From Promethearchaeota archaeon Loki_b32 (GTDB taxonomy: Archaea; Asgardarchaeota; Lokiarchaeia; Sigyniarchaeales; SOKP01): a stretch of 64,000 bases of DNA. The stretch is from the NCBI GenBank assembly GCA_005223125.1, contig NJBH01000005.1, positions 96,001-160,000 of the forward strand, written 5' to 3'. The first letter of the stretch is position 1; the number at the start of each line of letters is the position of its first letter. The position numbers and the translations under genes were made by a program. A model generated the notes under the pieces. It saw only the letters and a list, made by a program, of their open reading frames with translations, had not been told where the DNA came from and did no database searches. This document shows positions 52,794 to 56,063 of the stretch, piece by piece.

Positions 52794-55070
52794 ATGGGTT
52801 TGATTATGTATAAAAAATGCACAATTTTTTTGATACTCACTTTACCATTCCTATTTATTTTATATCAATCTGGAAATTTTGTTCATGCTGAGGAGTATGA
52901 ACAAATAGAAATAGAAGGCTTAAAATATCCAATGTATGAATCTGCTGATATTATTTCTCAAGTGAATAATACTGAATCAATTGAAATTGCTTTACCAGCA
53001 ACATCGTGGAATGTTACGAAAATAGAACTAAATTTTACTGACATAAGATTAGGAAAAGAGATAAAAGAATTTGAGGTAATTGATGCTGGTTTTAAAGTAA
53101 TTGAAAAATTTGGTAATAATTATGGATATGCAGTTCAAATCAATATATCTTCACCTACAACCGTTTATGGTACTTATATTTATGGTTTTAAAAATGATTT
53201 GGCTGATAAAATATTGAGAGTCCAAATCAATGGATATAATCTTGTTAAAAATGCTCCTGAAGATACCCTTTATGGTACTCCAATCTCACTTAATATAACT
53301 AAGAATGTAGGATGGTATTATCAAGAATTTGTTAATCCAATTAATCTTCCAATTGGAAAATATTTCTTAGTGGTTAATGGTTCAAATATATTTACAGCAC
53401 AAGATAAATATTACTGGGGATATAATGCTTACACTCAATTTCCAAATCTACACGTTTCAACATATGATGGGAATACTTGGAGCGAAGGAGTAAAGAATTC
53501 CACTTTATTATATAAATTGGTACAAAGTACTGACCGAATTTATAATCCCCAAGAAATAAATATGACACTAAAAATCGATAACACTTATTATAGCATCTTC
53601 AATGGCAATACTAATGGAACAGGTTATGTTAAAATACCTAAATTAAACTATTCCCCTGATATGAATCCTTTAATAATTCCAATTAAAAGTAACTCTTCAG
53701 CAAAACTTAATTTTAGTTATAACCATATTTTAGGGATAAAAAATAAATTTGATGCAGATGGTTCTGTCTTTTTGGAATTAGATAAGGTAGTTCAGTGGAA
53801 AATAGAGCCAATGATAATTAGAATAGAGAGTAATTACTCAGTTAAATTTTATTATCCTGTTAATTGGAATGATATAAAAATATACAGGAATGGATTACTT
53901 ATTAATTCAGAATTAAATGTTATAATAAATACAGATGAAAAATACATTAGTTTAAAGAGTGAAATTGTTTTAATTGGAGCATCTTGGTTGATAACAGCAT
54001 TATCTTCACAAGAAATATTGGATATAAATTTTCCTAAAAAGGAGTTTGAACCTAAGCAAGAACTAAAATTTTCAATAGAATTGCCTCAAGTTGAAGGAAA
54101 TGTCTCTTGGAAGTTAATTGACGTATTGGGTTTTGAAGAATTCTCTGAGACTAGAAGAGTTATTTCGGAAACAATGAGTTTTTCTTACCAAATTCCGGAA
54201 AAACCTTACGAAGGAAATTGTAAGGTCATAGTTATTTGGTATAATGATCAAAAGGCAGGTATATATTTACAAGACATTAAAATAAATATTCCATTTACTT
54301 TAGACCCTGATTCTATCATCTTAATTGTAACAATTATAGGAATAATTTCAACTGTTAGTACAGCATCATATATGACGATTAAAAAGGTTAGAAACAAAAT
54401 TCAGCGAAATAGAAAAAAGTTGATTGATAAATTTATGGATGTGCTTAACTTGAATTATTTTATGGTCATAGATAAAGATTCTGGACTATGTGTGTATGAA
54501 GAAATCTTAGTAGGTAAAATAGTAGATTCTACATTGATTTCTGGTTTTTTAGATGCGATACGTTCATTTGGAATCGAACTTACTGGTTCTTATCAACAAT
54601 CTAAGACTATAAAATTAGAATATAAAGATTCTAAAATACTAATGGTTGAGTTTAAGAATTTTAGGTTAATATTTATAATGAAAGAGAATCCTTCTAACGA
54701 TTTTTTAAAATCAATTACAGATTTATCCTATGAAATTGATGAAAAATACGGTTATCTCCTCTCAAATTTTAATAATGATGTAATGCCATTTAAAGGAATT
54801 AAACTTCTTGTAAAAAAGCATCTAAACACAACATTTTTAGCACCATTAAAGGTTGTAGAAAATAAAAATATAAAATTAAATTCTACTGAGAAAAATGAAA
54901 TTAATAATGCATTGGATTTTATGAAGGAAAATTTACTCGAATATTTTTATATAAGTTTTCTATTACCTCAACAGGATTGTGAACCAAGTAAAATAAAAGC
55001 AATATTTAATTTAATTGAAAAAGAAATATTTCAGCCCACGATATTGAAAGAGCAAAAATTACATAAATGA
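52794..55070 (+). CDS. Single-pass receptor-like protein: signal peptide, beta-rich ectodomain, TM helix, cytoplasmic longin domain
   Basis: Signal peptide ending VHA|EE; at least 14 N-x-S/T sequons before the TM (SIILIVTIIGIISTVSTASYMTI), then KKVRNKIQRNRKK; longin pattern FMVIDKDSGLCVY..STLISGFLDAIRSFG..IKLEYKDSKIL. Confidence 0.8.
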   Translation: MGLIMYKKCTIFLILTLPFLFILYQSGNFVHAEEYEQIEIEGLKYPMYESADIISQVNNTESIEIALPATSWNVTKIELNFTDIRLGKEIKEFEVIDAGFKVIEKFGNNYGYAVQINISSPTTVYGTYIYGFKNDLADKILRVQINGYNLVKNAPEDTLYGTPISLNITKNVGWYYQEFVNPINLPIGKYFLVVNGSNIFTAQDKYYWGYNAYTQFPNLHVSTYDGNTWSEGVKNSTLLYKLVQSTDRIYNPQEINMTLKIDNTYYSIFNGNTNGTGYVKIPKLNYSPDMNPLIIPIKSNSSAKLNFSYNHILGIKNKFDADGSVFLELDKVVQWKIEPMIIRIESNYSVKFYYPVNWNDIKIYRNGLLINSELNVIINTDEKYISLKSEIVLIGASWLITALSSQEILDINFPKKEFEPKQELKFSIELPQVEGNVSWKLIDVLGFEEFSETRRVISETMSFSYQIPEKPYEGNCKVIVIWYNDQKAGIYLQDIKINIPFTLDPDSIILIVTIIGIISTVSTASYMTIKKVRNKIQRNRKKLIDKFMDVLNLNYFMVIDKDSGLCVYEEILVGKIVDSTLISGFLDAIRSFGIELTGSYQQSKTIKLEYKDSKILMVEFKNFRLIFIMKENPSNDFLKSITDLSYEIDEKYGYLLSNFNNDVMPFKGIKLLVKKHLNTTFLAPLKVVENKNIKLNSTEKNEINNALDFMKENLLEYFYISFLLPQQDCEPSKIKAIFNLIEKEIFQPTILKEQKLHK

Positions 55071-55106
55071 ACAATAAAATAAGTTAAAATTAAAAAGGTT
55101 TGAAAA

Positions 55107-55649
55107 TTGGAACGTAAAGATAATAAAATTTTAATATTAGGTTTGGATAACTGTGGGAAAACTACTATTCTATTGAGTTTAAAAGAAGACACGAATCTTT
55201 TATCCTACTTATCTTTAAAACCAACAAGGGGGGTAAGCATTGAGAAATTCGAAGAGAACGATTTTAATATATATGTTTGGGATTTTGGGGGTCAAAAAGA
55301 GTACCTCTCAGATCATATTACAAATTTTAATAAGTACGTAAAAGGAGTAGATGAGATTATATATGTTATCGATGTTCAAGATTATAATCGTTATGATCAA
55401 GCATTAAAATTCTTAGAAGAGGTAATAAAATCTATGGAGAAAGAAGAATTAAAAGTAGAATTATCTATTTTCTTACACAAATATGATCCATACTTGAAAA
55501 ATAATGTTGAATTTAAAGATATTGATAAAAAAGTAAATTCTTTGATAAATAATCAAATTTTTGATTTAATCCCTGCTAAATTTAACTATAAAATTTACAG
55601 ATCCAGCGTTTATACATTATTTGAGAAAAATCTAATATTTTCAAATTAA
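55107..55649 (+). CDS. Arf/Rag-like small GTPase
   Basis: G1 GLDNCGKT, G2 PTRG, G3 WDFGGQ, IIYVID, G4 HKYD, G5 SSV. Confidence 0.9.
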   Translation: MERKDNKILILGLDNCGKTTILLSLKEDTNLLSYLSLKPTRGVSIEKFEENDFNIYVWDFGGQKEYLSDHITNFNKYVKGVDEIIYVIDVQDYNRYDQALKFLEEVIKSMEKEELKVELSIFLHKYDPYLKNNVEFKDIDKKVNSLINNQIFDLIPAKFNYKIYRSSVYTLFEKNLIFSN

Positions 55650-55670
55650 AATAGTACAATAACGGTAAAT

Positions 55671-56063
55671 ATGAGTAATATCAGCAGTATTTATGTGATA
55701 GATAATATGAAGACACCAATTTTCACTTTAGAGAACCATAAACAAGGTTCAAATGCAGTTTCTAAAACGTTAATGTCTCGTTTTATTGATTCCTTACAAT
55801 CTATTGCATCTCAAATAGAAAACGATGAAGGTCGAGTAATAAAGATTGGAAATAAAAATTATTTTATAATAAAAGATACAATAATTAATTTTAAATATAT
55901 AATAGAATATAGCAATGAGAATACATTTGACCAAATATCTTTAATCTTAAATAAAGTTAAAAATAAGTTTATTGAAAGATTTGAGGGTAAATTAGATTTG
56001 CCAATATCAATGAAAATTGATCTTGTAGCCTTGTTAAAAGAAGATATTTTAGAATTTATTTGA
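55671..56063 (+). CDS. Stand-alone longin-like domain protein
   Basis: ISSIYVID..TPIF (beta-beta), TLMSRFIDSLQSIA (alpha), IKIGNKNYFII..FKYII (three beta), ILNKVKNKFIERF (alpha); 130 aa. Confidence 0.65.
   Translation: MSNISSIYVIDNMKTPIFTLENHKQGSNAVSKTLMSRFIDSLQSIASQIENDEGRVIKIGNKNYFIIKDTIINFKYIIEYSNENTFDQISLILNKVKNKFIERFEGKLDLPISMKIDLVALLKEDILEFI

Follow-up and report, generated by a model that had tools for sequence, protein, structure and literature searches.

A conserved Lokiarchaeial gene trio of longin-tailed surface glycoprotein, anchor-less GTPase and free longin, a possible membrane-bound GTPase switch

The window analysed here is a stretch of 64,000 nucleotides (nt), positions 96001-160000 of contig 37 in a 4.13-Mb, 30% GC metagenome-assembled genome of a Lokiarchaeial member of the Promethearchaeota (labelled G000). 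It contains three co-directional genes for a single-pass surface glycoprotein with a cytoplasmic longin domain, which we call the receptor, for a small GTPase of mixed Arf and Rag character, and for a free longin. We give about even odds (roughly 0.5) to the reading that this trio forms one operon building a membrane-bound small-GTPase switch. The features are as follows, in window coordinates.

52794 to 55070, + strand: gene 1, a type I single-pass surface glycoprotein of 758 amino acids (aa), the receptor; from its open reading frame (ORF), translation and family membership.
52794 to 52889, + strand: signal peptide of gene 1, aa 1-32, with a KK n-region, a hydrophobic core and VHA/EE cleavage; read from the sequence, with a hydropathy peak at aa 9-27.
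52890 to 54314, + strand: ectodomain of gene 1, aa 33-507, with 14 N-x-S/T sequons; outside known families.
54315 to 54380, + strand: transmembrane (TM) helix of gene 1, aa 508-529; from hydropathy, and helical in the AlphaFold2 (AF2) model.
54381 to 54449, + strand: basic juxtamembrane helix of gene 1, aa 530-552; from AF2 helix 2-32 of the modelled piece and from K/R content.
54450 to 54833, + strand: cytoplasmic longin domain of gene 1, aa 553-680; from DSSP of the AF2 model, Foldseek and VIA-align.
54834 to 55067, + strand: small C-terminal alpha/beta domain of gene 1, aa 681-758; AF2 predicted local distance difference test (pLDDT) score ~90.
55107 to 55649, + strand: gene 2, a 180-aa stand-alone Rag/Arf-like small GTPase with complete G1-G5 motifs and a TTG start; from Pfam, subfamily alignment and tree.
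55671 to 56063, + strand: gene 3, a 130-aa free longin; from AF2, Foldseek and hhalign.

An earlier, sequence-only reading of this DNA had placed three ORFs here, and translation matches them exactly, including the intergenic gaps of 36 nt (genes 1/2) and 21 nt (genes 2/3). Neither gap contains an oligo-T run. With such tight gaps, and with a gene order kept in relatives, the genes look like one operon, as had been proposed. The flanking genes are unrelated to the trio and lie on the opposite strand, a ferredoxin-like protein being encoded upstream and a TrkA-N protein downstream.

How far does this arrangement extend beyond G000? We searched 135 genomes of the same family (the genera named below are labelled g1, g12, g15, g16 and g17) and found the gene-3 subfamily in 34 genomes from 6 genera; 30 loci were examined for neighbours. 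Nearly all of these longin genes (27/30) sit directly behind a receptor or a GTPase gene, and the full order receptor-GTPase-longin recurs at 8 of the 30 loci, in eight genomes of three genera: G000, G001, G019 and G274 (g1), G244, G245 and G249 (g16), and G306 (g15). The receptors of the distant trios belong to the same ectodomain family (E-values from 1e-163 to 1e-189), and the genes are closely packed there as well, with spacings down to 6 nt and also a 4-nt overlap. Between genera, identity is 31-36% for the ectodomain, 52-55% for the tail, 47-48% for the GTPase and 31-35% for the longin. No flanking gene beyond the trio is common to different genera; the conserved unit is thus the trio itself. 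Because the order is kept while the flanks differ, and because only 4% of G000 genes have a GTPase gene within 300 nt, adjacency by chance is very unlikely. The sequence-only reading had exposed itself to refutation by a lack of synteny in relatives, and it came through this test, with the trio in three genera and the receptor-longin pair in four. A narrower distribution, suggested by 41 genomes that represented this family with a single genus, had the trio confined to three close kin (G000, G001 and G019); the search of the 135 genomes overturned it.

Several observations bear on how the trio travels. In G249 (L158:358-5820, g16), two tandem receptor paralogues of 773 and 768 aa precede the GTPase and longin genes in a four-gene arrangement. 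Similarity between the window and two metagenome contigs from another study (X6 and X7, ~98% identical) is confined to 52692/52697 to 56112, which covers the trio with ~100 nt before it and ~50 nt after it; beyond this match both sides carry unlike sequence. G000, G001 and G019, too, have different genes upstream of the trio. Two readings are conceivable: mobility or recombination of the trio as a cassette, or simply fast divergence of its spacers.

The receptor has the architecture of a type I membrane protein. Its signal peptide is predicted to be cleaved at about aa 32/33, and its ectodomain is strikingly rich in sequons, with 14 observed vs 5.3 +/- 2.0 expected, a count attained by 0 of 2000 shuffles; in the cytoplasmic part the number is at the chance level, with 2 observed vs 1.8 expected. 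Since relatives likewise show sequon-rich ectodomains (14-29) and sequon-poor tails (0-4), this topology signal is valid family-wide. Lysine and arginine make up 9 of the first 14 residues after the TM helix, and the basic helix is modelled by AF2 as continuous with the TM helix, leading straight into the first strand of the longin. Sequence, hydropathy and shuffling thus bear out the signal peptide, sequon-rich ectodomain, single TM helix and basic inside flank that had been read from the DNA. The protein is one of a large multigene family of Lokiarchaeia whose paralogues number several per genome and often stand in tandem; neither Pfam nor NCBIfam matches any part of the protein. Its ectodomain diverges faster than its tail (31-36% vs 47-55% identity to distant members), as is usual in receptors. 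The best-conserved stretch of the ectodomain (aa 170-213, window 53300-53430, with W174, Q177, F179, G188, Y190 and W208) gives a weak profile match to Wzt, an O-antigen ABC (ATP-binding cassette) transporter, in its carbohydrate-binding domain (E 0.03; 8dky, 6o14), and a protein-atlas feature search of the ectodomain returned weak leads to lectin-like and Ig-like domains (score 0.77). Taken together, these leads hint that the ectodomain may bind glycans.

Structure prediction supports a longin fold for the receptor tail. The AF2 model of aa 520-758, built with 35 homologues, has a pLDDT of 82.7 and a predicted template modelling (pTM) score of 0.78, and DSSP places its longin elements at E34-41, E47-52, H60-72, E85-91, E94-101, E104-110, H116-138 and H145-158 (model numbering). 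This is the order b1-b2-a1-b3-b4-b5-a2-a3 of a longin, with no N-terminal helix packed on the sheet. The alpha1 helix is highly conserved (LISGFLxAIRSFGxEL). In Foldseek, longins rank first (AP sigma, Sec22b, VAMP7 and Tca17, E about 1e-4), and an all-against-all comparison with VIA-align scores the Sec22 and Fuzzy longins at Z 11.8 and a solved Lokiarchaeota longin (8yqg) at Z 11.1; the SRX (Z 9.2-9.9), AP sigma/mu and COPI zeta longins are matched as well. Because the tail model scores higher against longins (Z 9-11.8 over 115-132 residues) than against Roadblock, LAMTOR or MglB (Z 7.8-8.6 over ~100 residues), we assign the tail to the longins rather than to the Roadblock proteins. The C-terminal domain that follows is winged-helix-like by secondary-structure order only. 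It is conserved with the longin as one module: of 201 Asgard genomes, 165 have end-to-end matches to its 235-position profile, in proteins of 460 to ~2250 aa, some of which carry Ig-like Big_1 domains.

The same module also occurs in a soluble 457-aa protein (aa 52-288; G000 contig 18, 101068-102441, L122), where it is followed by a weak match to an MIT domain (E 1.3e-4) that hints at a link to ESCRT-III. A shape search of the ESM Atlas with the tail model (window 54351-55067) returned Promethearchaeota V4R-domain proteins (TM-score 0.55 over 170 residues) and a very large cluster of bacterial OmpA-family membrane proteins (TM-score 0.50 over ~150 residues). PMC4316618 describes Rup1 GTPase neighbourhoods with membrane proteins, to which the bacterial cluster may perhaps correspond; we note both matches as leads only.

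Gene 3 appears to encode a second longin of the same kind. Pfam offers no family at E <= 1 for gene 3 or for the tail of gene 1, NCBIfam likewise gives no match, and the gene-3 family shows a weak PDB profile match to TRAPP Bet5 (E 0.55). Its AF2 model (pLDDT 81.6) has the longin order bb-a-bbb-aa, with DSSP elements at E4-10, E16-21, H32-47, E54-59, E62-68, E75-80, H83-104 and H112-129. The best Foldseek matches are the TRAPP longins Tca17, Bet5 and Trs23 (E 4e-5, TM-score ~0.6), with zeta-COP, VAMP7 and sigma-adaptin also matched; the top 26 matches of the model are longins, and LAMTOR first appears at rank 27. Model and fold search agree with the longin-like character suggested earlier for this 130-aa protein, and they support a longin fold. 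For the tail and the free protein alike, AF2, Foldseek and, for the tail, VIA-align had the opportunity to refute the proposed folds and did not.

The two longins are related to each other. An hhalign comparison of a 57-member free-longin profile with the receptor-tail profile gives a probability of 93.9% (E 1.6e-7), in register over b1-b5; hidden Markov models of the two families match overlapping ORF sets in G000, and the free and tail longins share a similar, highly conserved alpha1 helix. As judged from these profiles, the comparison shows the tail longin and the free longin to be paralogues. An exhaustive profile search for the gene-3 family yielded 154 cluster representatives, nearly all of them stand-alone proteins of ~143 aa. 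No longer protein fusing the gene-3 subfamily to another domain was found, which is weak evidence, and the contigs of distant free longins are too short to show neighbouring genes. In the b1-b2 loop, the consensus of the free-longin family reads D-x-x-G-x-P, but gene 3 itself has N-M-K-T-P.

The GTPase encoded between the two longins carries the motifs GLDNCGKT, T40, WDFGGQ, HKYD and a G5-like SSVY. It matches the Pfam families Arf (PF00025; 2.6e-24, 86 bits, cut-off 22.3), Gtr1_RagA (PF04670; 4e-18, 66 bits, cut-off 22) and SRPRB (2.7e-11), and among solved structures the RagA-like LokiRagO of a Lokiarchaeote (8yl2) is closest to it (E 8e-23). With Arf proteins it shares the profile, the GLDxxGKT P-loop and WDxGGQ, and it lacks their N-terminal amphipathic helix and NKxD G4 motif; with Rag/Gtr proteins it shares the profile and the HKxD G4 motif, and it lacks their C-terminal roadblock domain, which LokiRagO has. 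As the 180-aa protein ends right after G5, it is Rag-like but not a Rag. Only six residues (MERKDN) precede strand 1, residue 2 is Glu and the C-terminus reads ...IFSN, leaving the protein without Gly2, an amphipathic helix, or a CaaX or other lipidation motif. Between the preceding stop and the TTG there is no other start codon, which makes a longer ORF impossible. Motifs, Pfam scores and termini thus uphold the description of gene 2 as an anchor-less Arf/Rag hybrid. Its combination of an Arf-type P-loop with a Rag-type G4, which the sequence-only reading had singled out, is present in gene 2 and is not peculiar to it: the alignment reveals it as the hallmark of a whole subfamily of stand-alone ~182-aa GTPases, the counterpart of what Tran et al. 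(PMC10933270) treat as a 'Rag-like but close to Arf' class.

Paralogues of this GTPase point to a role in signalling. The nearest ones lie in a co-directional operon that joins an ArsR-type winged helix-turn-helix (wHTH) protein, the GTPase and a MASE3-PAS-HisKA-HATPase sensor kinase in at least 12 genomes; we therefore regard the gene 2 subfamily as signalling GTPases. In the example on G000 contig 44 (72431-75954, minus strand, L067; related loci L074-L099), the ArsR protein has 111 aa and the GTPase 182 aa, the latter being 41-48% identical to gene 2. ArsR and GTPase occur without the kinase in five more genomes and as an ArsR-GTPase fusion in G026 (L079:1198-2028). A kinship between this wHTH and the C-terminal domain of the receptor tail was considered and rejected (hhalign probability 0.2%). 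A response-regulator gene lies before a further GTPase of this kind on G000 contig 57. Within the stand-alone Arf/Rag-like subfamily, a tree groups all longin-linked GTPases together with moderate support (ultrafast bootstrap, UFBoot, 86; approximate likelihood-ratio test, aLRT, 89); this cluster takes in longin-then-GTPase pairs from another family, and the ArsR-operon paralogues are placed apart. G000 also encodes proteins in which a longin of the same superfamily is fused to a GTPase domain, and longin fusions are known for Asgard Rag-like GTPases (PMC10933270; bioRxiv 10.1101/2020.10.19.343400).

Receptor paralogues, too, are found beside GTPase genes. Directly upstream of one of them (747 aa; G000 contig 36, 88000-102000, L031) and on its strand are genes for a 197-aa MglA-like GTPase and a helical protein of 125 aa, an arrangement shared by G006 (L101:2539-6548) with an 82% identical GTPase; in G018, a Ras-family GTPase gene is convergent behind a receptor-longin pair. 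Across all receptor paralogues, enrichment of GTPase neighbours is only suggestive, since it comes from two or three independent ortholog groups set against the 4% background. Contig 36 also encodes, within 5 kb, a 302-aa Rag-like GTPase, a JAB peptidase, a ThiF/E1-like protein and two proteins of 298 aa, each combining an N-terminal longin with a P-loop domain. In another group of receptor paralogues, a gene for a predicted membrane protein (191-205 aa) almost always follows in convergent orientation, as seen at no fewer than 15 loci (for example G000 contig 18, 131011-131592, L030:5012-5593; also L020-L026, L111-L116 and L119). This protein has weak Pfam matches only, to GPDPase_memb and DUF3671, and may be a conserved partner of that group.

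How might the trio work as a switch? We envision that the surface glycoprotein would hold its longin directly beneath the membrane by way of the rigid basic helix that continues the TM helix. Conserved alpha1 helices and edge strands would then join the free longin to the tail longin, in the manner of eukaryotic longin/roadblock pairs, and the anchor-less Rag/Arf-like GTPase would reach the membrane by binding to the two-longin platform so formed. Binding might set or read the nucleotide state of the GTPase, with the platform acting as an exchange factor for guanine nucleotides (GEF), as a GTPase-activating protein (GAP) or as a site of GTP-dependent docking. The most likely direction would be outside-in, such that binding or clustering of the ectodomain alters the platform and hence the GTPase. 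We arrive at this two-longin switch because the gene order is conserved, the longins are paralogous, longin-GTPase fusions exist and longin/roadblock pairs behave in known ways. Pairs of established behaviour are MglB, Ragulator, the TRAPP core, Mon1-Ccz1, FLCN-FNIP and NPRL2/3. Among them, Mon1-Ccz1, FLCN-FNIP and NPRL2-NPRL3, together with TRAPPC1-C4, offer parallels as pairs of paralogous longins (Tran 2024, PMC10933270). Sensing is favoured because the ectodomain evolves faster and because paralogous GTPases occur in a sensor-kinase context. The many receptor-longin pairs that lack a GTPase argue that the primary partner of the free longin is the receptor tail. A complex prediction with the tail (aa 547-758), the GTPase and the free longin, the last being the scored partner, reached ipSAE values of 0.29 and 0.27 vs a mark of 0.32 and carries no weight either way.

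Several points weigh against such a switch. At 14 of the 30 loci, in 14 genomes of g1, g12, g16 and g17, the longin follows the receptor without an intervening GTPase, and at another five, three of them cut by a contig end, GTPase and longin lie together without a detected receptor; the remaining three loci have none of these arrangements. Next to most receptor paralogues (a 760-aa subfamily, multi-copy and often in tandem) there is no GTPase gene and no free-longin gene, so the receptor family as a whole does not need this GTPase. The genomes compared belong to one family and are non-independent samples. Two metatranscriptome runs give contigs at 53563-54383 only, inside gene 1, from libraries that may contain DNA. 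Neither Pfam (29 members) nor the protein atlas nor a PDB profile search gives the ectodomain a recognised ligand-binding fold. Longin GAPs of the FLCN, NPRL2 and SMCR8 type carry an arginine finger and a GP motif in the b1-b2 region of their catalytic longin (PMC12290439); for the trio no catalytic signature is established, and the invariant Arg of the tail longin (aa 624) sits in strand 5. The heterodimer, the binding of the GTPase, any activity upon it and the direction of signalling are thus things that we infer.

Alternatively, information may flow from the inside to the outside: the GTPase in its GTP form would dock on the membrane-held longin and control the location or density of the displayed surface glycoprotein, on protrusions for instance, making the receptor a target and not a sensor. 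SR-beta-GTP on the SRX longin of SR-alpha and Arf1 with longin-containing coat adaptors are analogues of such docking, in keeping with the matches of the tail longin to SRX, AP sigma/mu and COPI zeta and of the GTPase to SRPRB. The larger family members contain the Big_1 domains typical of adhesins, Lokiarchaeia have no S-layer and many surface proteins (PMC9834061), and a soluble member of the tail family has the weak MIT match described above. Adhesin-like relatives and a protein-rich surface free of an S-layer keep this model alive, and we treat it as a tentative one. The association of the nearest GTPase paralogues with sensor kinases and ArsR is a better fit to signalling than to sorting, and there are no coat-like or SRP-like (signal recognition particle) genes nearby. 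It is also conceivable that the GTPase and the free longin are a self-contained switch, either an MglA/MglB-like or a split Rag-like pair, with the receptor merely co-regulated and its tail longins forming homodimers or pairing with tandem paralogues. GTPase-longin pairs without a receptor in G246 and G305, the longin-GTPase order in another family, the many receptors without a free longin, often in tandem, and the known fusions of a longin with a Rag-like G domain (PMC10933270) are compatible with this. The free longin directly behind a receptor without any GTPase in 14 genomes is hard to explain, though, if the GTPase were its sole partner, and its kinship with the tail longin speaks against such autonomy as well; we consider this alternative improbable.

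The idea that the three genes are functionally unlinked neighbours would draw on a genome crowded with GTPases and longins (~87 small-GTPase and ~20 longin-superfamily ORFs in G000), and GTPases of strain MK-D1 generally lie outside operons with longin or roadblock genes (Tran et al., PMC10933270). It must nevertheless accommodate an order kept at 31-55% protein identity across three genera while all flanks differ, against the low background of GTPase neighbours noted above, and we find it very hard to credit. At the far end of the outside-in direction stands a more specific proposal: the surface receptor would carry one half of a longin GEF or GAP, a ligand, a glycan or clustering would switch the two-longin platform that loads or unloads the GTPase at the plasma membrane, and the whole would be a living model of the state ancestral to eukaryotic longin regulators. 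In this complete form we regard the proposal as rather unlikely.

Resolving these alternatives matters for our understanding of Asgard GTPases. Asgard archaea have dozens of small GTPases and longin/roadblock proteins in cells without endomembranes. GTPases and their candidate regulators are rarely encoded in operons (PMC10933270), so partners cannot be matched. In the cassette, by contrast, a GTPase comes matched with two longins and a membrane anchor; the set is conserved in three genera, and its proteins are small enough for direct biochemistry. If the proteins bind, regulators of eukaryote type would be tied to the Lokiarchaeial cell surface, and the origin of longin GEFs and GAPs, as regulators that existed before eukaryotes, would become testable in vitro. 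If the outside-in pathway is true, the trio would be a living model for the origin of Ragulator/GATOR/FLCN, Mon1-Ccz1 and the TRAPP core, and it would indicate that signalling at the surface, and not vesicle traffic, is the business of the expanded Asgard GTPases.

Asgard longins, Rag-like and Arf-like GTPases and their fusions are already well described. We found no published description of the receptor-GTPase-longin cassette in the full-text literature searched. It differs from known modules in that a longin is fused to a non-kinase glycosylated surface protein, in its second, paralogous free longin, in an Arf/Rag-like G domain without anchor or roadblock domain, and in its conserved operon arrangement. 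Modules of a membrane sensor, a Roadblock protein and a small GTPase are, however, established in bacteria, as the conservon, MglA/MglB and the Rup1 neighbourhoods (PMC4316618). The sequence-only reading had presented the trio as a prokaryotic receptor-to-small-G-protein pathway; this overstated its novelty, because the actinobacterial conservon is an established precedent, with the sensor histidine kinase CvnA, the Roadblock/MglB homologue CvnB, CvnC and the MglA-like GTPase CvnD (Komatsu 2006, reviewed in PMC4316618). Like the trio, the conservon is an operon that joins a membrane sensor, a protein of the Roadblock/longin superfamily and a small GTPase of the Ras superfamily, the presumed output. 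Unlike it, the trio has a sensor without a kinase, namely a glycosylated single-pass protein with a fused longin, as well as two paralogous longins without a Robl_LC7 match, an Arf/Rag-like instead of an MglA-like GTPase, and no CvnC. The ArsR-GTPase-sensor-kinase operon is closer to the conservon and looks like its Asgard counterpart; the trio may work alike but is a non-member.

The remaining comparisons concern single parts of the proposed switch. In the MglA-MglB system of Myxococcus and Thermus, a small GTPase is regulated by a Roadblock-superfamily dimer encoded beside it, which is what we predict for the trio; MglB is a soluble Roadblock homodimer, however, and MglA belongs to another GTPase class, although an MglA-like GTPase does adjoin another receptor paralogue in G000. 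The pair of SR-alpha SRX and SR-beta likewise brings a longin and an Arf-related GTPase together at a membrane, and its folds match those of the trio (SRX Z 9-10, SRPRB 2.7e-11). Its polarity is reversed, in that the eukaryotic GTPase has the TM anchor and the longin is soluble, and the trio lacks the NG domain of the SRP receptor. Ragulator-Rag, FLCN-FNIP, GATOR1 NPRL2-NPRL3, Mon1-Ccz1 and TRAPPC1-C4 resemble the trio in having a membrane-held, paired longin/roadblock platform, which is predicted here, that regulates a GTPase of the Rag, Arf or Rab type. The platform subunits are paralogous in these systems as well, and the trio GTPase has the HKxD motif of the Rag type. In contrast to Ragulator-Rag, where lipidated LAMTOR1 provides the anchor, the trio would be anchored by the TM helix of a surface protein, and its GTPase has no C-terminal roadblock domain or sign of a Rag-type heterodimer. 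In contrast to the eukaryotic longin GAP and GEF pairs, the trio has no DENN or TINI domains, and its predicted platform would operate at the plasma membrane of a lysosome-free cell.

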